This document shows positions 46,275 through 63,488 of a stretch of 64,000 nt of DNA, piece after piece; within the stretch, counting starts at the first letter, position 1; each line of letters opens with the position of its first letter. Origin of the DNA: a virus (lineage: Duplodnaviria; Caudoviricetes); IMG/VR virus record IMGVR_UViG_3300033463_000005, positions 96,001 to 160,000 of that record. One strand, given 5' to 3'. The notes under the pieces are model-generated. The model made no database searches and was not told the origin of the DNA. It saw only the letters and a program-made list of their open reading frames with translations. The position numbers and the translations under genes were made by a program.

Positions 46275-48197
46275 TCAAGCTTTAATGACTTTTTCCAATG
46301 GTGTTTGTGTTGGTGGAATGCCACGGATTGTGTGTGATAAACCAACTGTAATTGCAGTTGAAATATCTTGGAATAGCAATCCTTGTAGAATGCCAGCACG
46401 TTGTACAGCAACACGGAATGGTTCTTTGTCATATGACATCGGATCAACATCTGATTTACCATACACGGATGCAAATGATTTATTCCCGTGTCGGCAAACA
46501 CGTCGTGCTAACATTTCATATGTGATGGAAGGACCATTCAGATCAATACCATTCAATTCCAAACAACGGAACATCAACTCTGTCATTAGATTATATGGTA
46601 ATTGTGGAGATTTACTATGTAAATATATTTGATTGATATAAAATTCAATATTTGCAACGGATTGTTGCATTGCAACTGAACACACTTGATCTCCTGCGTC
46701 ATATTGAATGATGTAATAATCTGGATCTTCCTGAATATCATCATAGATGTTGAATCGCAATGTTGCCGGAATTGTCATCAGAGTTGACAATAACACAGAA
46801 CCGTCTTCTTTGTAAAATTTTACAGGTAATACACCAAAGCTTTCACATACGGTTGCTTCAATGGAGAATCCAGAAAATTCTTCAAACAATTTTGGCACAA
46901 ATACTTTCATGATGGTTTTTGGAACAATGCATCCTTCATGAATATCATAATATGAATTTGCATCATTGAATATATACTTCTTATCGATGATGGATGCTTT
47001 TTGCGACAAGTCATGTTTTGATTTCAGTTTCTTATTCAACAATGCTTGTGTGATCGATGTGACAAGTAAACCGACATTTTGAACACCCAGATTATGGAAC
47101 ACTCTACCACCGCATTTACCACAGATTGATTCGTGGATGCAACACTGTGGAGAATACAATTCAACCGTTTTACCGACATAAGAACCAATGTTTTCCAAAG
47201 TGGTCAATACTTTCTGACCACCATCATTGATATACCGATATAATACATACTGTTTGTTTTTATCTGTGATTGTGAGTGGAATTGTTTTTGTTGTACCACA
47301 ATCGGAATTCGGATCCGCATCAATATGTTCTGACTGTAATAATGCGAGAATAATTTTTGCCATGTAACCAGAATCCGCAGTACCAACTGCAGAAGGATAT
47401 GCACCTGCAACAATAGAATTTGCAAATGCCGGAATATCCTTTTTCTTCACACCATCCATCAGTGAGGAATCGACGATATCAAATCTACCGGTAATGTTAT
47501 TAAACACAGCGCCACGCATAACATTGATCGTTTTATAGTTATTATCTAGATTACCATCGCCGGATGCATACATGTCATAGCCAGTATCACCTTTCAGATT
47601 CTGACGAACCATTTCCATCAATTCTTTTTCAATTTTATTCATTGCGAGAATTTGCTTGGTTGGATCTTTGGAATAAATATCATCGTGGTATTTTTCCATC
47701 AATTCCATTTTCCGTTGATTCACATTATGCATCGGACGAATCAATCCGGCGGAAATTGAAGTAGACAGAAATGCAGTTGCTTGGAATCCCAGTTGGTCAC
47801 GGCGGTCAACGAATTTTGCATTTGTATATGTATCAATTTGATCCGTAATAATCAAATTGTTGACAGCAACATTTAATGCACCAAGACCTTTTTTGTCTAG
47901 TGTTCGATTCCAATACCCAATAAATTGAATGACGCCAGTATATTCCAACAGGAATCGATTCATGAATAATAATCCAAGTGTTGTTTCGACAGAATCTTTC
48001 ACATATTGATATTCAGCATGAGACAGTGTGATTTTATCTGTTGGATTGAATGGTGCCTGTTTTGCTTGGTTGGTTTCTTTATCATAATATGCTGCAAACA
48101 AAGATTCCAGGAAATCCTTGTTAAATTCAGAAATATCTGCAGATAGAATTCGTTGCTTTCCAATGGTTGCATTGGATACTTGTTTCTCTATTGCCAT
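46275..48197 (-). CDS. Phage multisubunit RNA polymerase, beta-prime C-terminal part (probably virion RNAP)
   Basis: TTLG, MRG, SSLMDG, bridge-helix TADSGY, DCGT, Zn site SPQCC..ICGKC; no DFDGD, so the subunit is split. Confidence 0.85.
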   Translation of the reverse strand: MAIEKQVSNATIGKQRILSADISEFNKDFLESLFAAYYDKETNQAKQAPFNPTDKITLSHAEYQYVKDSVETTLGLLFMNRFLLEYTGVIQFIGYWNRTLDKKGLGALNVAVNNLIITDQIDTYTNAKFVDRRDQLGFQATAFLSTSISAGLIRPMHNVNQRKMELMEKYHDDIYSKDPTKQILAMNKIEKELMEMVRQNLKGDTGYDMYASGDGNLDNNYKTINVMRGAVFNNITGRFDIVDSSLMDGVKKKDIPAFANSIVAGAYPSAVGTADSGYMAKIILALLQSEHIDADPNSDCGTTKTIPLTITDKNKQYVLYRYINDGGQKVLTTLENIGSYVGKTVELYSPQCCIHESICGKCGGRVFHNLGVQNVGLLVTSITQALLNKKLKSKHDLSQKASIIDKKYIFNDANSYYDIHEGCIVPKTIMKVFVPKLFEEFSGFSIEATVCESFGVLPVKFYKEDGSVLLSTLMTIPATLRFNIYDDIQEDPDYYIIQYDAGDQVCSVAMQQSVANIEFYINQIYLHSKSPQLPYNLMTELMFRCLELNGIDLNGPSITYEMLARRVCRHGNKSFASVYGKSDVDPMSYDKEPFRVAVQRAGILQGLLFQDISTAITVGLSHTIRGIPPTQTPLEKVIKA

Positions 48198-54046: not shown

Positions 54047-57000
54047 TCACTTATAAACAGGGGAGGCGCCGATGTGCCAAGCCGAGAGGGACGCCGCGGT
54101 ATACACATTAACATACCGCAAGCCGGAGTAAGCATCGTTGTCACAGTAACCACCGCGAATGGCGACGCGAACACCAGATTGATTCTGATAGAAATAATCA
54201 CAATAGTATGTCGATTGTGTGCCACCAACAACCGTCGGCAAACTTCCAAACTGTGTAGATACTTCTGTCTTGATGTAGTTGTTCGATGTCGGTGATTGCG
54301 CAACAGATGTACTGATTGCGGTATATCCTTCTCCGGTAAGATTGTACGCGGGATGCTCTTTGATCTTATAGATACCGGCATCAAGAATAAGACCAAGCTC
54401 TATATCCCATCTTTCAGCCCAGAGTGCTTCCATGCCGAAGCACTTGACTTGTGAAGTGGTGGTGGAATATCCAAAGAACTTGCCCTTGTCATTGAGCGTT
54501 CCACAGTTAAGGAAATCAGATGCAGAATTTCCGCCGGTAGAATGCCCTTGACCGAACTTGCCTTGCGTGTCAAGGCTCTTGCTGATAAGCGTGAGCAGGT
54601 CACAAAGCATTTCTTTCGACGTGTAGTCCCAAATCTGCCAACCTGTTCCAAGTGCGGACGCGGCATCGACTTCCTGCTGCGCGGTTGTGCCTGATTGTGG
54701 TTTCACTCCAGATATAGACCGCAGTTTGCCATCAACCATTGACCCTTTGTAGATCGGCAGATAAATATACGGCTTCACAACACCGTTTGCGTCCTCGTGT
54801 GCATAAGCATGGAAATCACTATCAAGCTGTCTGTCTGAAATCTCGATGTAGTTGTAGCTGCCATCGTCTGTGCGCTTTATCCACACGGTCGGGAACGCGA
54901 TCATGGCGTTCATTGATTTCGTGGAATCGGCAATATCAGACGCGGTTCCATCGAGTTTCTTTGAGTAATCGTTCGGGTCAATGTCATATGCTTCCGTGCC
55001 GTCGAAATTGAGCATGACAGGACGAGCGTTCTTGATAAACCAGACATTTTCCCAAGAACCGTAGTCGAACACACCGTTTGCGAAATCCATTCCTGCCGGT
55101 GTCATTGTTACAGCATCATGCGTATAGATGACTGCATTAGACGGATCAGAAACAGACTTGTCGATCTTGAAGCCGAAATGGACAGGTTTCGCGTGTACTT
55201 TTACAGTCATAGAAGACGGCGCTATCGTTGTTCCCACAGAAATTGTCGTTGTTCCGTCATTAGTCGGCAAAGTAACACCCGCCTGCTCGCTTGTGAGCGT
55301 GTCCACATAGCTGCCGATTTTCATCAATGGCTCGTTGACTATGCCGGTCTGCTCGTTTGCTAGGACGTACCAGACGGTGACGGGCGTGCCGGCGGCGTAT
55401 TGACTTGCAAGATATGTTTTCCACGCGTCCGTTGTCTGAACAGTTCCAGTAGAAAATGCAAGCCATTTCTGCGTCGATGCAACGCCAACGCCTACAAATA
55501 AACCGTCGTAAATAACATTAAACGGTTTCGATTCATAGTGGGTAGATATTGCTTCCCCACCAACAAGAATATCACTTGCTACGATATAGAATGATTTACC
55601 CGAGGTTCCAAGTTCAGACCAGCTCTCCGTCCCATACAGCACCAACTTCTTAATCCTTCTCGTCGTCTGCACTCTGCCAAGATAGACATTCTGCGTCTGT
55701 CCGGCGGATGTGAGGGAGATTTTATATCCATCGGTTAAAACCACATCGCCGATGGTGCAGACGAAAACAATATTGGCATCGCAGAAAATCACTGACGCAT
55801 AGACTTCTTCGGAGCCATTGTACGATGTACGCCAGACGCCATCTGATGTAATCGTTACAGATGTGCCGGGTACAATCTGATTTCCAGAAACTCTTCGGAA
55901 GCAGATTCTGAATTTTCCGTTTGAGTAAAGCCCCGCAGAGCCATTACTAACTTTTACCTGGAAATACGTCGTTTTGTATGTTGGAATCTCATCTGTCAAA
56001 TTAAATGCAAGGTAGTTTGTTCCGGTTGATAATGTAGATTCTACGGAAAAAGTTCCGTCAGAATTTTCTGTAACAGTGAAAACAGGGCTGTTTTGTCTCC
56101 ATCCGCCAGACCATCCGTTTATTTCATCCCCACACCCGTCCACCGAAACCGGCGCATCCTGTGCAGGTGTGCCGGACTGAACTGCGTTGCCGTCAATAGA
56201 CCAGCTCTTAACCGGCAAGCCATATCCTCTCACAGAGATAGACGATGTTCCGGTGAAGGTGTCAGCTCTGCCCCATGCGATTGCATAAGCTCCTGTGTCA
56301 AGAGAATATGTGCCGCCTTGTTCGGGGGTTCCGTTTGCGGTAGGATAGATGGGGTTTGTCGGGGATGGTGTTCCGGTTTGAGTTAGGAAACCTTCGACTG
56401 TGCCTGTGAGGTTTGAGGGGACTGTGATTGTTTCTGTGGTGGGGGTGGCTAGGACGTACCAGACGGTGACGGGCGTGCCGGCGGCGTATTGGTCGGCAAG
56501 GTAGGTTTTAAAAGCGTCTGCTGTCGAAAATACTGTGTCTTTGAACCTAAGACCGCTACCGCCATCAGATGTGTGCCATGACAAAAATTCTGAATACTGT
56601 CCTCCGTGTTGCGCCCATTCCGCATTTGAAATTGACACAAAATGCGAGCAGCACCAGAAAATGTCTGATGTTTCCGGTAGCGTCATCGGTTGTGTCAGGA
56701 TTAGTTTAAACGGTGCAGACGATCCGAGTTGATATGTCACCGTTTCCTGCCCCGTCAGTACCAGCTTCTTAATCTTTCTCGTCAACCCACCACTAGACAA
56801 ATCCAGTGTATCCTTATATGTGCTGATTCCACACAGTGGGTTTGTGAGACCGTGGAGGATGACTCTGGTTTTTGCTTCCCATGCTTCTTTGGTGATGCGG
56901 TAAGGAACGTATTGTGATGGTGCTATAGATCCTTCAACAACCATCATTGTATCAATGCATTGTTGAATCTCTTCCGCAGTATTTGAATCTGTTCCAGCAT

Positions 57001-57727
57001 GCTTCGCATAATATACGACAATATATGCACTATCTGCAGCAGATGTAGTTGTAATAGAATATGCGTCGGAATCAAAAACTGCACCAGATACAACCTGATC
57101 TTTATACAGAGGAAAACTGTCGACAAATCCAACAGTGAACCGGTGCAGAATAACCTGTCGTGATACGGTATATATTGTATTTGGTTTACATGGTAGCACG
57201 AACATATCACAATTTACTGATGCAACAACTTTTGTTGTGATGTACCAGTCTCCACCACTGACAATATTATTCTTATCGAACAAATTTTCTGTCCGTGCTT
57301 TTACATAAACATGATCCAGTGGCTTCTCAATACGGTATGGTTCATAAGGTAATGCTGTAGTTCCTGTATTAATCATTAACTGAAAATCATCATCTAGCTC
57401 AGGCATAGAACCGTCTGAACGCTTAATTACAACTGCAATATATGGTGATGTTCCTTGATATGAAGTAACCCATGATGTATATTCTTTTGTATATAATTGA
57501 TTTGAATCAAAGAAGCACAAGAACACGTTGAAATTAGAATTAATTGTTAAACTAAATTCACCGTTTGTTTTTATCAAGTATATACTTCTTAAACGCGTTG
57601 TGCCAGGTGTATCTTTTTTCAATTGTTCGTATGTGGCACCAACAGCTGTAGCCTGTTCTGCAACAGTTCCACGCTCTATACTTTTTTCATCAAATAGATT
57701 ATTTGTTCTTGCCCATAAATGAGACAT
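54047..57727 (-). CDS. Mosaic receptor-binding/tail fibre protein with C-terminal CLec-like DGR-target-type domain
   Basis: Repeated NLFD..Y.PY and YAAGTPVTVWYVLA modules; ends VAIRGGYCDNDAYSGLRYVNVYTAASLSAWHIGAS. Confidence 0.8.
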   Translation of the reverse strand: MSHLWARTNNLFDEKSIERGTVAEQATAVGATYEQLKKDTPGTTRLRSIYLIKTNGEFSLTINSNFNVFLCFFDSNQLYTKEYTSWVTSYQGTSPYIAVVIKRSDGSMPELDDDFQLMINTGTTALPYEPYRIEKPLDHVYVKARTENLFDKNNIVSGGDWYITTKVVASVNCDMFVLPCKPNTIYTVSRQVILHRFTVGFVDSFPLYKDQVVSGAVFDSDAYSITTTSAADSAYIVVYYAKHAGTDSNTAEEIQQCIDTMMVVEGSIAPSQYVPYRITKEAWEAKTRVILHGLTNPLCGISTYKDTLDLSSGGLTRKIKKLVLTGQETVTYQLGSSAPFKLILTQPMTLPETSDIFWCCSHFVSISNAEWAQHGGQYSEFLSWHTSDGGSGLRFKDTVFSTADAFKTYLADQYAAGTPVTVWYVLATPTTETITVPSNLTGTVEGFLTQTGTPSPTNPIYPTANGTPEQGGTYSLDTGAYAIAWGRADTFTGTSSISVRGYGLPVKSWSIDGNAVQSGTPAQDAPVSVDGCGDEINGWSGGWRQNSPVFTVTENSDGTFSVESTLSTGTNYLAFNLTDEIPTYKTTYFQVKVSNGSAGLYSNGKFRICFRRVSGNQIVPGTSVTITSDGVWRTSYNGSEEVYASVIFCDANIVFVCTIGDVVLTDGYKISLTSAGQTQNVYLGRVQTTRRIKKLVLYGTESWSELGTSGKSFYIVASDILVGGEAISTHYESKPFNVIYDGLFVGVGVASTQKWLAFSTGTVQTTDAWKTYLASQYAAGTPVTVWYVLANEQTGIVNEPLMKIGSYVDTLTSEQAGVTLPTNDGTTTISVGTTIAPSSMTVKVHAKPVHFGFKIDKSVSDPSNAVIYTHDAVTMTPAGMDFANGVFDYGSWENVWFIKNARPVMLNFDGTEAYDIDPNDYSKKLDGTASDIADSTKSMNAMIAFPTVWIKRTDDGSYNYIEISDRQLDSDFHAYAHEDANGVVKPYIYLPIYKGSMVDGKLRSISGVKPQSGTTAQQEVDAASALGTGWQIWDYTSKEMLCDLLTLISKSLDTQGKFGQGHSTGGNSASDFLNCGTLNDKGKFFGYSTTTSQVKCFGMEALWAERWDIELGLILDAGIYKIKEHPAYNLTGEGYTAISTSVAQSPTSNNYIKTEVSTQFGSLPTVVGGTQSTYYCDYFYQNQSGVRVAIRGGYCDNDAYSGLRYVNVYTAASLSAWHIGASPVYK
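55359..55402. repeat. 44-bp perfect direct repeat, copy 1
   Basis: GCTAGGACGTACCAGACGGTGACGGGCGTGCCGGCGGCGTATTG. Confidence 0.9.
56448..56491. repeat. 44-bp perfect direct repeat, copy 2
   Basis: Identical to 55359-55402. Confidence 0.9.
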
Positions 57728-57740
57728 TGATGTTCACCTC

Positions 57741-58055
57741 TCAATCATAGGTAAAGTAGACGTCTGCAGTTTTCGTTGCAAGTTGTGAATATGCGGTTTC
57801 AGACATAATTTCACCAACAATCGTTGTTTTCAAATTACCACTGGCATCTGTTGTCAAACCATCGCCGACTTTCACACCCACAACATTACTTGCGAGACTA
57901 ATTGCAGTTCCGGTAGTTAATGCATCTTGTTTTCCGTTTACAACGGTCTGTATATTTGATATGGCATTTGATTGGGTTTCCAGCTCATCTTTCGTAATCC
58001 CAATCAATGTTTTAATAGCATCTTCTGATACTACTTTTTTATCAGGAAATTGCAT
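57741..58055 (-). CDS. Short fibre adaptor-like protein
   Basis: Start MQFPDKK after GAGGT; KQDALT.G, VGDGL, YSQLATK motifs. Confidence 0.65.
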   Translation of the reverse strand: MQFPDKKVVSEDAIKTLIGITKDELETQSNAISNIQTVVNGKQDALTTGTAISLASNVVGVKVGDGLTTDASGNLKTTIVGEIMSETAYSQLATKTADVYFTYD

Positions 58056-58101
58056 AATACATACCTCTCTTTCAAGATTTTCGTGCATGATATGTTGCAC
58101 G

Positions 58102-58140
58102 GTTATTGAAACGTTTTGTGCATGTACAAACATTTCTATA
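58102..58140. promoter_or_regulatory. Back-to-back late-type motifs for the fibre genes (-) and the DGR RNA/RT (+)
   Basis: AAAC-GTTTCAA-TAAC (-, 58102-58116); AAAC-ATTTCTA-TA (+, 58128-58140). Confidence 0.5.
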
Positions 58141-58300
58141 GCACTAATCGTGTGAATCGGATCAGATGCTATAATAGCAACCATCATATATCCGTTGGTT
58201 TGAATGGATTTTCGTATATCCATACCGAACGTGGTCCATATCGCATTTATATTAAATATTTTATTTTATGAACAAGGGACATTTTTACACAAATAAAAAA

Positions 58301-58414
58301 ATGTCACCCTGCTGAGTGGCAATTGGAATAATGCTAGTAATGCAGGATTGATGTATTGGAATGTGAATAATACCACGTCGAATCGGAATCGGAATATCAG
58401 TACCCACCAATGTT
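58301..58414 (+). ncRNA. DGR template repeat (TR)
   Basis: 114 nt, AAT-rich, gaplessly matches the reverse complement of 59849-59962 with differences only at A. Confidence 0.95.
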
Positions 58415-58529
58415 GTGAAATTTATATGTGTACGTTCCAAACCACACCTCTTGGTGAAATACATAACATGTGATAATCCGTATTGGTAACGAAAGTGAAG
58501 ATTCGGTAATACCACAACACAAAGGATGA

Positions 58530-59639
58530 ATGTATAAAATGAAACGTGAATTATATGCCCCCGGGAAACCCGGGGTCACATTATTTGATGACATTATTTC
58601 CATGGATAATCTAAGAGAGGCACATAAACATGCAAGAATGAATAAAACATGGTATAAGGAAGTACAAATGGTCGATTCTGATCCAGATTATTATTTACAA
58701 CGAATTCATGATGCATTATACAGCCATACATTTCATACATCAAACTATGATATATTTGAACGCCAAGAATTTAATAAAACCCGCGTAATATATAAATTAC
58801 CATATTATCCAGATAGAATTGTTCAGTGGGCAATCATATTAAAAATTCGACACATATTGGAACGGACATTTATTTCAACAACATATTCATCTATTCCAAA
58901 TAGAGGACCTTTGCGATGTATGATAAAAGTTCACAAAGATATGTGTCATGATTATTATGGAACAATGTGGTGTCTAAAATTGGATATTCACCATTATTAT
59001 CCATCGATTGATCACATGATTTTGAAACAAATGTATCGACGATTATTCAAAGACGATGAATTATTATGGTTAATAGATGATATAATTGATTCAGTTCCAA
59101 ACGATAAAGGGGTTCCAATTGGAAATTTCTTATCACAGTATTCCGGGAATTTATATTTAACATGGTTTGATCATTGGGTCAAAGAAGTTTTACATGTTAA
59201 ATATTATTATCGATACATGGATGATATGGTATTTTTATTTGGTGATCCAAAAGTAGCATGGAGTGTATTTTCTAAAGTGACTGAATATCTGAATATAATG
59301 CTGCGCTTAAGTCTAAAAGAAAATTATCAGTTATACCATGTCGATACAGATGGCATTGATTTTGTTGGATTCAGAATTTACCATGATCATGTTTTGATAC
59401 GGAATCGAATTAAAAAGAATTATATTCGAAAAGTGAAAAAATATAGATTCAGAAAAATGACACCATCAATATTATCATCATATTCGTCATATATGGGATT
59501 TCTACAACATGCGAATACATACAATTTGCAAAAATTACATTCACGCGAAATTGATTTAAATTGGGGATTAAAACGAGATATCAAGACAATAAGAAATCAA
59601 CCATATTTCAGATTGTTTAAAACAAATAAACAAAAATGA
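58530..59639 (+). CDS. DGR reverse transcriptase
   Basis: PYYPDRIVQWAI, KLDIHHYYPSIDH, GVPIGNFLSQ (DGR-type GxxxSQ), RYMDD, GIDFVGF. Confidence 0.95.
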   Translation: MYKMKRELYAPGKPGVTLFDDIISMDNLREAHKHARMNKTWYKEVQMVDSDPDYYLQRIHDALYSHTFHTSNYDIFERQEFNKTRVIYKLPYYPDRIVQWAIILKIRHILERTFISTTYSSIPNRGPLRCMIKVHKDMCHDYYGTMWCLKLDIHHYYPSIDHMILKQMYRRLFKDDELLWLIDDIIDSVPNDKGVPIGNFLSQYSGNLYLTWFDHWVKEVLHVKYYYRYMDDMVFLFGDPKVAWSVFSKVTEYLNIMLRLSLKENYQLYHVDTDGIDFVGFRIYHDHVLIRNRIKKNYIRKVKKYRFRKMTPSILSSYSSYMGFLQHANTYNLQKLHSREIDLNWGLKRDIKTIRNQPYFRLFKTNKQK

Positions 59640-59671
59640 ATTCGGTTTTATTCATATAACAATAAAGATGA

Positions 59672-59695
59672 ATGGGGGCGCATATGCGCCCCCAT
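59672..59695. terminator. Perfect palindrome between convergent RT and target genes
   Basis: ATGGGGGCGCATATGCGCCCCCAT, identical to 33125-33148. Confidence 0.8.
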
Positions 59696-59831
59696 GGTGT
59701 ATATAGTATAAAAATCGCATACATCGGCGGCAAGTATATAAAGTTGCCGCCATTGTTTATACTAGATTCTATATTGATTACATTGCGGGCGGTATTTTTA
59801 AATGATACCTTTGCGACATTTTGTGTTCACA

Positions 59832-61670
59832 TTATGTTTGAGGATAGTAACACAGGCGGGCACCGATATACCGAGCCCGAGCCGACGCGGCATTATACAC
59901 AATCCAATACATCAATCCCGCATAACCAGCATAATACCAACGGCCACCCAGCAGGGCGACATACCAGCCATTGGAAGTATTGTGATAATTGTAATCTCCA
60001 ATAACTCCATTTGCAGATCCAGACGAATATTCAGATCCAATGAATACCCAGTCGGTATCTGAATTCCCATAACCGAATGCGGTGACATAATTGTTTGTTG
60101 TTGGTGACTTGAATCCAACATCTGTAAATCCAGTAGAAGTTCCTTCTGTGAAGGTGAAATCATTACACACAAAGAATGATACTGCTGATGATGCCGTTTG
60201 GGCATTCAGACCCATTGCAAAAGTCCATATATTACCCCAGGCATTTTCTTTACCGCGATATGACACAGCAAGTTTATTTGCTGCTGTTTGGTCGGTTCCT
60301 TGCCAATCCTTTGTAATTGTAGCATTGCCAGAAGCATTACCGAGCGATGATGTAGAACCAGTGTACGATGAACAGTTCTTTGATGAATCAGGATCAGAAC
60401 CGAATGCAACACCATTTCCGAGTGACAACTGTGAATTGGCAGAAGCATACTCAATAATGAATAACATCTGATCCACCGATGCCACTTTGAATGTTTCAGA
60501 GTGCCACCCAGCACCACGGTTTTGCGCAAGTTTCTCCGAATTTGCCCGCGTCAAATTATTAGATGTTGTTTCACCGGACATTGCACGCACATTTGCAATA
60601 GATGAAAGTTTATCTTCGTCGACATTCATAACCTGTGAATCATCAGTAATGTATGCAGATGCAGATGTATCATACAGGCATCCTTCATATGCACTAATGA
60701 GAACATAATCAACAACATTACCAGCTTCATTGATAAATGCAGGATGGAGTTTGAATCCAGGAATTGGATAATCGGAAAGATAATAATTACAAGTTCTAAT
60801 ATGGTAACCACCCAATGGGTTTGCATCCTTTGTTACTGGTTCCACCTTGTAATAGAACTTCGGTTGATAAACCATTACCTGTCCCATTGAGCCATCTTCT
60901 GCAAAGTTTGCGTCACCATACCACGATGTGATAGTACCATCATCAGCAACAGTACAGCGCTTTCTATCTTTATAAGCATGGAAAGCAGATGGAATACCAG
61001 CAACGATTCGGCAGTTCGATGCATTCTGGTAATCAATATATGTCTGAACATATGTGTTGTAATCCCACATTGCAGTGATATCTGCTGCTGTAATTGGGAC
61101 AATCGCATTATATGAATTCGTAATAGAGGAATAGATACCGGATGACTTAACTGGATTTGTGGAAGATTGTAATGGTTCATTATCAAATGTCAACCCATCA
61201 ATATCAGTGATTTGTATTTTTACGATAATAATGTATCCGCTACCATTCAAACCGGTTGCACTATATACATCCAACGTATTATTTGCAAATGCATTGATAC
61301 CGTATCCGGTGAACTCTTGAACACCGGATTCTGCAGTCTTTCTCAAAATGATATGATGCTTATAACCATTGATTGTTGGCGTAAACAGAATCTCTGAATA
61401 ATCACCATTTCTCATGCTTTGAAGTTTTGCCACATCTGCAGATGTTGGTTCAAATCTCCATGTAACAGAACCAGTTGATGTTGCTGTTCCAGTAATTTCG
61501 GGAACATTCGCAAGATTCGACAGTTTCGTTTGAAACGCGGTTGTGAAATCGTTCGTGGACAAACCTTTTCCACTCTCGGTATCTACCTTCAAATCAAGTG
61601 CTTGTTGCACCAATTTTATCAGTTCTTCAACACCTGAACGATTCACAAATTCTTTTGTTTCGAATGGCAT
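59832..61670 (-). CDS. DGR target: fibre/receptor-binding protein with C-terminal CLec-like domain
   Basis: KVD..GKGLSTNDFT N-motif; VMVYQPKFYY, GFKLHPAF, YRGKENAWGNIW; VR at the 3' end. Confidence 0.9.
   Translation of the reverse strand: MPFETKEFVNRSGVEELIKLVQQALDLKVDTESGKGLSTNDFTTAFQTKLSNLANVPEITGTATSTGSVTWRFEPTSADVAKLQSMRNGDYSEILFTPTINGYKHHIILRKTAESGVQEFTGYGINAFANNTLDVYSATGLNGSGYIIIVKIQITDIDGLTFDNEPLQSSTNPVKSSGIYSSITNSYNAIVPITAADITAMWDYNTYVQTYIDYQNASNCRIVAGIPSAFHAYKDRKRCTVADDGTITSWYGDANFAEDGSMGQVMVYQPKFYYKVEPVTKDANPLGGYHIRTCNYYLSDYPIPGFKLHPAFINEAGNVVDYVLISAYEGCLYDTSASAYITDDSQVMNVDEDKLSSIANVRAMSGETTSNNLTRANSEKLAQNRGAGWHSETFKVASVDQMLFIIEYASANSQLSLGNGVAFGSDPDSSKNCSSYTGSTSSLGNASGNATITKDWQGTDQTAANKLAVSYRGKENAWGNIWTFAMGLNAQTASSAVSFFVCNDFTFTEGTSTGFTDVGFKSPTTNNYVTAFGYGNSDTDWVFIGSEYSSGSANGVIGDYNYHNTSNGWYVALLGGRWYYAGYAGLMYWIVYNAASARARYIGARLCYYPQT
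59849..59962 (-). repeat. DGR variable repeat (VR)
   Basis: 23 substitutions versus TR, all at TR adenines. Confidence 0.95.
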
Positions 61671-61688: not shown

Positions 61689-62372
61689 TTATGAGTTGGA
61701 TGTATCATTCCAGATTGTATCAATTGTCGTAGATGAAATTGGAGAGAATGAACCATCCAGACTATCGATTGTACCAGTAATGATTTTGTTCTGAACTGGA
61801 TTTTCTGATTCCAATGACATGACTGCATCAACAGTCATTGTGGTTGTACCGATGTACTCCCAGTTGTTATCGAGTGTATATGTATACTCTTCGAATTCTG
61901 TTGCAGTTGTCAAACCAACGAGATACACCCAACCTGGTTGTGGATCTTGAACATTTGCCAAATCTGCAACGGTATCAACACGACCCTTCATCATCATTGG
62001 ATTCTGAATTGATGCAAGTTTTTGTTTTTCTTGTGCCGTGTAATCTTCTTCGGACAATCCATATCCTTCGATCTTATTTACTTTTTCATTCAACAATGCA
62101 TCGGTTTGTGCTTTGGTGTATGCATCTACAGCTCCACCGCCACCGCCAGGAGCCATATCAGGGAAATAATCATAAAAGTTTGTTCCATCAATTGGCGTAC
62201 CATCTTCATCCGTAATGAAGTATTTCGAAATCTGAATCAGATCCCATACTTCTTGACCTGTTGCGGAATATCCTGTAACAGGATTCGGTTGGTTGATTAC
62301 TGCAATATTGATTGCGCGCAATGGTGGTACGGATCGATCAACGACATTAATCGTGACAGTCGTATCTGCCAT
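61689..62372 (-). CDS. Fibre/adaptor protein, shared anchor domain copy 1
   Basis: INVVDRSV.PL..NIAVINQPNPV; GLSEEDYT; SENPVQNKII. Confidence 0.75.
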   Translation of the reverse strand: MADTTVTINVVDRSVPPLRAINIAVINQPNPVTGYSATGQEVWDLIQISKYFITDEDGTPIDGTNFYDYFPDMAPGGGGGAVDAYTKAQTDALLNEKVNKIEGYGLSEEDYTAQEKQKLASIQNPMMMKGRVDTVADLANVQDPQPGWVYLVGLTTATEFEEYTYTLDNNWEYIGTTTMTVDAVMSLESENPVQNKIITGTIDSLDGSFSPISSTTIDTIWNDTSNS

Positions 62373-62393: not shown

Positions 62394-63488
62394 TCAATTA
62401 GTATTATTACCGGTATTAACATCATTAACATCAGATCCAATCAGTGATTGCCATGATGAATTGACCTTTAAGAATGTATCGATGACTTCATCATCATATT
62501 GCCCTGCAATGAAAGATACAGTTCCTTGATTTGGATAAAATACATCATTGACAATATCATACATACCAATCGCATTATCAGAATCACGTTCTGCTGGAAC
62601 AAAATGACGAACCAATGTTCCATTATCCCATTGCTTACAATAATAGATTCTGAAGTTATTGATAGAACTGATATCACCACCACGAGCAAACAAATACAGT
62701 GGTGTTCCAACAGATATACCACTCCAGTTACCAGTTTGCTTTACGGATCCATCGACACTGATACCATTTTCATCAACAACAAATGTGTGAATATCAGTAT
62801 CATTTGCTTGAATCGCACCGCCACTAACAATGTATCCTTCAAACCTGTTATTTTGGAAACCGAGAATTGGTGATCCCTTACTTCCAGAGAATGCCCCATA
62901 GAACCATGTATTATGGTTGGGAGTACCAACCAACTGTGCTGAAATTTCACAAGAGATATTTGAAGAACTTGTTAATCCGGTATCGATATATGCTCCAACT
63001 GTTGATCCCGTTTGAATATATGATAATGCGGTATATCCGGTTGGGAGATCGGCATTATCAATATATCGCACATATATATCTCCATTGTTTCCGATCGCAT
63101 CTGATGGTACTGATGATCCCGCTAATACAGTCGCGCTTTTTATAATAGATGGAACATCCACAACTACTGTAGAATATCCATCCGCATCATCATCTATTGC
63201 AGAATACTCTCCATTTTCAGTAATTGTTTTATCAATCAAAATGGCGGATCCACCACCGCCTCCACCACCACCAGATTTCGGAAAGTATTTATAATAATTC
63301 AAACCAGATACTTGTTCACCGTTTTCATCCGTGATAAAATAATTCGGAATTTGAATCAACTTTGCAACTTCATCTGCAGTTGCCGTATATCCTTCAACTG
63401 GATTTGGTTGATTGATGACCGCAATATTCACATGGTTTAATGGTGCAACCGAACGGTCCACAACATTAATTACCAATGTATTTGCCAT
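62394..63488 (-). CDS. Fibre protein, shared anchor domain copy 2, with lectin/ConA-like C-domain
   Basis: Same N-domain plus Gly linker; LP.GYT.L.YI..YIDTG..LVRHFVPA..GMYDIV. Confidence 0.75.
   Translation of the reverse strand: MANTLVINVVDRSVAPLNHVNIAVINQPNPVEGYTATADEVAKLIQIPNYFITDENGEQVSGLNYYKYFPKSGGGGGGGGSAILIDKTITENGEYSAIDDDADGYSTVVVDVPSIIKSATVLAGSSVPSDAIGNNGDIYVRYIDNADLPTGYTALSYIQTGSTVGAYIDTGLTSSSNISCEISAQLVGTPNHNTWFYGAFSGSKGSPILGFQNNRFEGYIVSGGAIQANDTDIHTFVVDENGISVDGSVKQTGNWSGISVGTPLYLFARGGDISSINNFRIYYCKQWDNGTLVRHFVPAERDSDNAIGMYDIVNDVFYPNQGTVSFIAGQYDDEVIDTFLKVNSSWQSLIGSDVNDVNTGNNTN

Follow-up and report, generated by a model that had tools for sequence, protein, structure and literature searches.

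A 64,000-nucleotide stretch of DNA (the window: bases 96001-160000 of the 258,509-bp IMG/VR virus record IMGVR_UViG_3300033463_000005; all unlabelled coordinates below are window positions) carries a diversity-generating retroelement (DGR), composed of a template repeat (TR), a reverse transcriptase (RT) gene and, on the opposite strand, a tail-fibre gene that ends in a variable repeat (VR1). With a probability of roughly 78%, we read the cassette as an active DGR of the accessory-free TR-RT class in a virulent-type jumbo phage that encodes its own RNA polymerase (RNAP). The lack of the accessory protein Avd and the inversion of the target are already known variations, and in these respects the cassette is ordinary, a further case of an established class. 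New are a remote and atypical second target (VR2) and a covarying RNA duplex that brackets the TR in a lineage without Avd.

The cassette and its tail-fibre target

The TR lies at 58301-58414 on the plus strand and VR1 at 59849-59962 on the minus strand. An ungapped alignment of the TR with the reverse complement of VR1 spans 114 columns, in which 23 of the 36 template adenines are altered (13 to G, 7 to T and 3 to C), whereas all 78 remaining positions are identical. The alignment reproduces the counts on which the initial annotation had recognised a genuine DGR. A scan of the whole window returned no further full match to the TR besides VR1, which, together with the exact adenine-only pattern, excludes a chance resemblance. 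In the frame of the VR, 33 of the 36 TR adenines fall at codon positions 1 or 2, and ten of the codons are AAT. In an open reading frame (ORF) of 612 aa, VR1 itself takes up the 38 codons that precede the final five, and it ends 17 nt before the stop.

The RT (58530-59639, plus strand; 369 aa, pI 9.4) is of the DGR type, with matches to phrog_1423 (1.2e-102) and RVT_1 (1.3e-11), and its matches to group II intron, retron and Drt models stay far under the cut-offs. The DGR hallmarks IGNFLSQ (an [I/L]GxxxSQ in motif 4) and YMDD (the catalytic YxDD) are unchanging in a 33-sequence alignment (A2), and no other RT is encoded in the genome. The best solved relative, matched over its full length (E 1.4e-23), is the 328-aa chain 8ub7_A, which we take to be the Bordetella phage enzyme bRT from its length and entry series rather than from the text of the paper. 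Relative to this chain, the RT has about 35 additional and very basic C-terminal residues; that such an extension might compensate for Avd is speculation. As a separate observation, a perfect GC-rich hairpin (7+7, loop of 4) at 58560-58577 on the plus strand covers RT codons 11-16, over the conserved PGxPG, and may merely reflect coding constraint.

The first target (59832-61670, minus strand) encodes a tail-fibre protein of 612 aa (phrog_5302 'tail protein', 9.6e-84) that ends in a C-type lectin domain of the DGR type. As had been described initially, it is inverted and converges with the RT gene across a perfect GC-rich 12+12 palindrome (59672-59695), terminator-like on the minus strand. An AlphaFold2 (AF2) model of residues 380-612 (pLDDT 80, pTM 0.80) superposes on the Thermus DGR variable protein 5vf4 with a Z-score of 10.6 and a root-mean-square deviation of 3.8 Å over 181 residues, and only weakly on Mtd (Z about 3.5). 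According to this model, the target displays VR1 on the expected C-type lectin fold. The C-terminal 230 residues thus model onto the Thermus aquaticus protein TaqVP (PDB 5vf4), although identity is only 16% and TaqVP is bacterial, whereas the domain here caps a phage tail fibre.

Close to the target lies a paralogue, a 1226-aa tail protein (54047-57727, minus strand; phrog_5302, 3.4e-79) with 27% BLASTP identity to the target, including the residues equivalent to the VR. At its C-terminus (54055-54168, minus strand), 48 of the 78 non-adenine TR positions match and the scaffold residues GG...AAS...IGA are kept. By its sequence, this segment is a decayed former VR, that is, an abandoned DGR target beside the active one.

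The evidence of activity comes from a sister strain, of which two contigs, L003 and L092, are available from a single sample. On L003, 12 kb long and with 96% identity across this locus, lies the gene for P0005, the nearest relative of the RT (98% identity). Between the two strains, the VR1 region has 19 differences, against a divergence of about 3.8% over the locus; in the 114-nt TR/VR register, 16 of the VR1 differences are at TR-adenine sites. The TR, on the other hand, shows four substitutions and is otherwise invariant. In the sister strain, two changes at non-adenine sites of the TR (58335 T>C and 58401 T>C) and one at an adenine (58347 A>G) are all found in both its VR1 and its VR2. Its remaining VR differences are nearly all at adenine sites, with one unexplained non-adenine difference at 58371. 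Since the TR changes of the sister strain reappear in both VRs, the DGR is active and has transferred TR sequence to the VRs after the strains split. The evidence for TR-to-VR information transfer is in this way comparative, drawn from two strains.

An inactive relic, with a TR/VR pattern of purely historical origin, is scarcely credible against this background. The canonical long initiation of mutagenic homing (IMH) sequence and an adjacent cruciform are indeed missing, and the decayed VR of the 1226-aa paralogue shows that targets can be abandoned. However, the RT gene has an undamaged reading frame and retains its catalytic motifs, those 19 VR1-region positions differ between strains that have diverged by only about 4%, and TR-specific changes at non-adenine sites were copied to both VRs after the split. 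The relic reading is rejected, and we retain that of an active DGR.

Template RNA, accessory genes and cassette class

The spacer between the TR and the RT gene contains a structured RNA (58440-58522, plus strand) that matches the Rfam family RT-17 (RF03020) over the full model length with 36.3 bits (E 1e-4), as a candidate divergent member; P1 and the segment 5' of it correspond to the 5' part of the family. With RT-17 it shares the position between TR and RT, the hairpin P1 (58445-58456, plus strand, followed by an A-rich tract) and the conserved UGGUA and GAA blocks. RT-17 scores above the gathering threshold at the same place in 7 of 14 relatives (42-70 bits, up to 70.3 bits), and the jumbo-phage loci in that search (L003, L004 and L006) stay under it. 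Within the paper library searched, no article naming RT-17 turned up.

Directly 5' of P1, the plus-strand segment 58433-58444 pairs with 58196-58206, upstream of the TR, in a long-range duplex of 11 bp with one bulge (-10.7 kcal/mol); the upstream region of no other locus pairs with it as well. The Rfam model omits this pairing of its unpaired 5' nucleotides with the segment upstream of the TR. An anchored test, the idea for which came from the spacer alignment, compared the 12 nt 5' of P1 with the upstream region of the same locus and with those of other loci. Over 45 non-redundant loci, the mean energy was -15.9 kcal/mol for the own pairing and -9.3 kcal/mol for the cross pairings (Mann-Whitney p = 1e-22); the own pairing ranked among the best 5% of cross pairings in 34 of the 45, with many fully compensated sequence variants. 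Only this anchored test was informative: free RNAduplex runs that paired the entire upstream region with the entire spacer returned loose duplexes that were not significant.

The arrangement resembles the cPRT Stop of the Bordetella phage ribonucleoprotein, in which a duplex of segments up- and downstream of the TR is followed by a short stem-loop and adenosines (10.1101/2023.10.23.563531). The same authors, Handa et al., sought the cPRT Stop only among 278 Avd-containing DGRs (10.1101/2023.10.23.563531). The locus described here has these elements in common with the BPP-1 version, a TR bracketed by an upstream:spacer duplex and then a short stem-loop and adenosines, as recognised from sequence alone. 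By analogy, such a layout in an Avd-less lineage suggests cis-primed reverse transcription of a looped template. One of the options proposed initially was that RNA replaces the accessory function. A conserved structured RNA is indeed present, but it is not evidence of Avd replacement, because Avd-containing DGRs have the same kind of element.

Mechanistically, a transcript would start upstream of 58196 and take in the TR, the spacer with its structured RNA and the RT gene. The upstream segment would pair with the spacer, so that the TR is looped out between the long-range duplex, the short hairpin and the A-rich tract, in a cPRT-Stop layout. The basic 369-aa RT would then copy the TR into cDNA, misreading adenines, and the cDNA would replace the VR at the C-type-lectin tip of the tail fibre, convergent and just downstream, as well as a 37-residue segment in the middle of a second protein (P0004), encoded 89 kb away. 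In this scheme we infer the cis-priming, the promoter and what the second target does biologically. The system is compact and evidently active, with a 369-aa RT and about 330 nt of RNA whose scaffold is supported by covariation, and it makes directly testable how a quarter of DGRs function without Avd.

Regarding accessory proteins, six-frame searches of the whole 258.5-kb genome with profiles for Avd (PF05635 and TIGR02436), HRDC (PF00570) and MutS-I (PF01624) gave no match at E <= 10; the controls for these profiles did match in reference genomes. No Avd-like ORF adjoins the cassette, whose only flanking genes are tail genes on the opposite strand. The initial remark that Avd is missing next to the cassette therefore extends to the entire genome. 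Relatives on contigs of 217-250 kb present the order TR, RT and then an inverted target, and those from Firmicutes phages present target-TR-RT on a single strand; both are free of Avd within 10 kb. An alignment-based RT scan of IMG/VR collected about 60 loci of the clade, with the spacing VR, about 80-100 nt, TR, about 130-200 nt, RT (the query with a single RT protein had returned nothing, and a megablast of the locus against the phage collection gave no match). This spacing leaves no room for avd. The lack of Avd is a property of the whole lineage, a very large clade of such compact cassettes.

The class itself is already catalogued. Architecture A, a TR-RT unit without an accessory gene, accounts for 75 of 372 DGRs (Wu et al. 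2018, NAR 46:11, PMC5758913). The same survey describes Lineage 3 as being without avd, found no remote avd with profile searches, concluded that a mechanism independent of Avd exists, and records DGRs with components on different strands (PMC5758913). The novelty that had been seen in the lack of Avd and in the inversion consequently does not hold, given that Architecture A and mixed-strand DGRs are already listed (PMC5758913) and the whole clade of the RT is Avd-less. These findings do not overturn DGR biology, in which accessory-free and mixed-strand cassettes already have their place.

Considering avd, HRDC and MutS-I, none of which is present in the genome, the cassette belongs to Architecture A; CH1, for which there is no public profile, was not searched for. 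The avd gene of the BPP-1-type Architecture B is found neither in the cassette nor in the genome. In common with Architecture A and Lineage 3 of Wu et al., the TR is directly upstream of the RT gene, there is no avd, HRDC or MSL gene, the target is a phage tail fibre, an extra target is not adjacent, and profile searches detect no remote avd. It differs in that the first target is convergent and downstream of the RT gene instead of upstream on the same strand, an inversion that is conserved in the jumbo-phage subclade. In addition, the genome is that of a 258-kb virulent-type phage, and the second target is 89 kb away, whereas the non-adjacent phage targets of Wu et al. are mostly within 50 kb.

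The BPP-1 DGR (mtd-avd-TR-brt) shares with this cassette the adenine mutagenesis, an AAY-rich TR, a tail-fibre C-type-lectin target and an RT homologous over its full length to 8ub7_A. In contrast to BPP-1, there is no Avd here, and the upstream strand of the duplex is non-coding, while in BPP-1 it is inside avd. The spacer measures 115 nt (140 in BPP-1), the RT has the extra basic C-terminal residues described above, a 14-bp GC IMH and an adjacent cruciform are absent, and the target is on the opposite strand.

Several observations weigh against the reading of an active, accessory-free DGR. First, five TR adenines (58306, 58315, 58399, 58402 and 58406) lie under scaffold codons, namely those for Ala, for Gly and for Gly-Ala-Arg in the conserved IGAR motif, and each is G in all VR copies compared, from two strains and two targets, so that part of the apparent mutagenesis pattern is fixed. 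Second, there is no long GC-rich IMH, and no hairpin directly follows VR1 or VR2. Third, the RT-17 score of the window falls under the Rfam gathering score of 40.4, and when folded as a single sequence the spacer does no better than shuffled sequences (z = 0.77). Finally, bRT is inactive without Avd (Handa et al., 10.1101/2023.10.23.563531), avd is poorly conserved (Wu et al. 2018, PMC5758913) and a very divergent small accessory could evade hidden Markov model searches; that the RT works without any accessory protein is something we infer.

As for the five fixed adenines, the template of a related phage encodes Thr-His at two of these sites, where its VR has Ala-Arg. The constant G could come from selection on folding, or from a short IMH / IMH* distinction with the last positions never transferred. 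The mirrored change at 58401 implies that TR-to-VR transfer reaches at least that position. Over their last 16 nt, the TR and VR differ by fixed A>G changes; the VR end is GC-rich in every copy examined, and homology ceases 4-5 nt later. The nearest hairpins are about 93 and 154 nt beyond VR1, and there are none after VR2. Wu et al. 2018 (PMC5758913) report GC-rich inverted repeats after the VR for only 34% of DGRs.

The need of bRT for Avd also leads to the idea that this DGR does require an accessory, which would be a small phage protein with a gene elsewhere in the genome, too divergent to be recognised, or else the Avd of a DGR in the bacterial host. The genome has many small ORFs of unknown function, and the contig of one relative was binned with a Parabacteroides metagenome-assembled genome, gut Bacteroidales being reported as DGR-rich (10.1101/2024.11.15.621889). 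We regard a hidden accessory as distinctly unlikely: two Avd profiles, HRDC and MutS-I came back empty in six frames of the genome even at E <= 10, no small gene is conserved beside the cassette across the clade, Wu et al. likewise found no remote avd for Avd-less DGRs, and tropism switching that hinged on a gene of the host would make a phage fragile. The accessory-free reading is therefore kept. One accessory candidate was considered and rejected. In the Firmicutes-phage relatives, a conserved acidic ORF of 81-86 aa follows the RT gene (L009:7017-7271, L010:7086-7346 and L011:7087-7332); it sits among tail and lysis genes and has no homologue in the genome studied here.

A second, remote target

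A scan of the whole genome with the TR revealed a third copy, VR2, missed by the initial annotation, at genome positions 243170-243279 on the plus strand (L002:7170-7279), 89 kb from the TR. Over its 110 nt, 19 of 36 adenines are altered and none of the 74 other positions. VR2 encodes residues 495-531 (37 residues) of P0004, a 746-aa ORF located outside the window (L002:5687-7927, genome 241687-243927), and is followed by 215 further residues. The only PHROGs match of P0004, to phrog_5302, has the size of the VR and is confined to residues 480-532; searches against Pfam and NCBIfam gave nothing. Profile-profile alignment (hhalign) of the P0004 family with the tail-target family aligns precisely 39 columns, which are the VR itself. 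On the basis of these profiles, P0004 is a non-tail-fibre protein whose common ground with the tail targets is limited to the 39 VR residues.

Comparison with relatives indicates that this target is in use. In P0125 and P0126, which are 84% and 77% identical to P0004 (alignment A1), the flanks of VR2 are near-identical and its interior is hypervariable. P0126 comes from the same sample as L003, and its VR2 bears the three TR changes of the sister strain. A distant phage (L007/G001), whose RT is 52% identical, has a 474-aa homologue of P0004 (identity 24% by alignment A1, 28% by the search match) with a VR at the same position, which equals that phage's own TR at every non-adenine site over about 96 nt. 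The hypervariability between strains, the shared TR changes and the conserved position in a distant relative together argue that VR2 is an old, maintained and actively rewritten target and no accident. As a side observation, the same distant relative has an additional VR (L006/L007:3127-3211, plus strand); the gene that contains it encodes 397 aa and lies 6.6 kb upstream of that phage's TR. Two or three targets therefore occur in members of the clade.

VR2 might instead be non-functional, a tolerated ectopic cDNA insertion or a gene-conversion scar in an unrelated gene. Consistent with such a scar, the likeness to the tail targets is confined to the 39 columns covered by the TR, the VR is in the middle of the protein and not at its C-terminus, and modelling produced no C-type lectin fold. 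This alternative is nonetheless very unlikely, because the segment is in frame within a 746-aa ORF, recurs at the corresponding place in a homologue with no more than about 24-28% identity, where it matches the TR of that other phage, and is hypervariable between close strains with conserved flanks while tracking the TR changes of the sister strain. Long-term retention and continued homing argue for selection, that is, for VR2 as a genuine target.

Residues ~645-712 of P0004 (L002:7620-7822) form a domain with 8,353 representative relatives at E <= 1e-3, mostly proteins of 100-400 aa; AF2 predicts it with pLDDT >90 as three strands and two helices, and neither Pfam nor PHROGs has a family for it. 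For P0004:440-746, AF2 reaches confidence in this C-terminal domain alone, with pLDDT 58-71 in the VR part, and a Foldseek search with this model, poor as it is in the VR part, gave no match. A period-5 scan for a VIPR guide-RNA array beside the P0004 gene did not discriminate. We put forward, as a tentative and rather unlikely proposal, that the DGR of this clade also diversifies a 37-residue segment grafted into a different scaffold, not of the C-type lectin type, that would serve a second function other than adsorption (for instance variable recognition of factors from the host or from rival elements). If true, it would also mean that cDNA capture is able to move a VR cassette into a protein of another kind. 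The homing itself reaches a second, atypical target 89 kb away, the nature of which could widen the known range of DGR-diversified proteins.

Phage genome, candidate transcription signal and flanking genes

The genome of 258,509 bp has a GC content of 38.8% and a CheckV completeness of 96%. Its ends (1-129 and 258381-258509 of the contig) repeat each other over 129 nt with 98% identity, and the assembly can probably be closed there, even though the record carries the label 'linear'. The RNAP beta-like gene at 46275-48197 (phrog_2962, 4.9e-58) agrees, together with the genome size, with the earlier description of an RNAP-encoding jumbo phage. The window also encodes a DNA polymerase, topoisomerase II, a helicase, a tape measure protein, a major head protein and an endolysin, and no tyrosine or serine recombinase or integrase was found in the genome. 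A survey of 224 isolate jumbo phages reports no DGR-type lectin domains (PMC7824862). The present locus documents the use of a DGR by a virulent-type jumbo phage.

Late transcription of the TR-RT unit had been proposed from a promoter-like motif. A pattern search does locate AACA-N6-TA at 58129-58140 on the plus strand, 160 nt before the TR, as a candidate AR9-type late promoter for the TR-RT transcript. We take AACA-N6-TA to be the AR9 late-promoter consensus. This copy precedes the duplex strand at 58196, a position that fits a promoter. The motif is, however, depleted in the window (20 copies, against 49.8 +/- 7 expected from shuffles), a shortage that would fit a functional signal being avoided elsewhere than in promoters. 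Of the 105 copies in the whole genome, 22 fall within the 10% of DNA that is non-coding, an enrichment of only about two-fold. Late transcription from this low-information site is thus weakly suggested.

The leader of about 160 nt preceding the TR, initially described as non-coding, is overlapped by a formal 160-aa ORF on the minus strand (57741-58223). Met57 of this ORF, at 58055, has a GAGAGG Shine-Dalgarno sequence 8 nt upstream, and the N-terminus that results resembles that of the target; from the sequence, Met57 is probably the true start. With a start at 58055, the 245 nt before the TR (58056-58300) are intergenic and most likely non-coding.

The shortened ORF corresponds to a small tail-fibre-like gene (57741-58055, minus strand; start assigned from the Shine-Dalgarno sequence and the N-terminal similarity), downstream of the cassette in the minus-strand late operon. 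The TR-RT unit as a whole sits antisense within a block of minus-strand tail genes, whose members are 62394-63488, 61689-62372, the target at 59832-61670, the small gene at 57741-58055 and the 1226-aa gene at 54047-57727. A second hairpin, at 59721-59756, lies between the RT and target genes.

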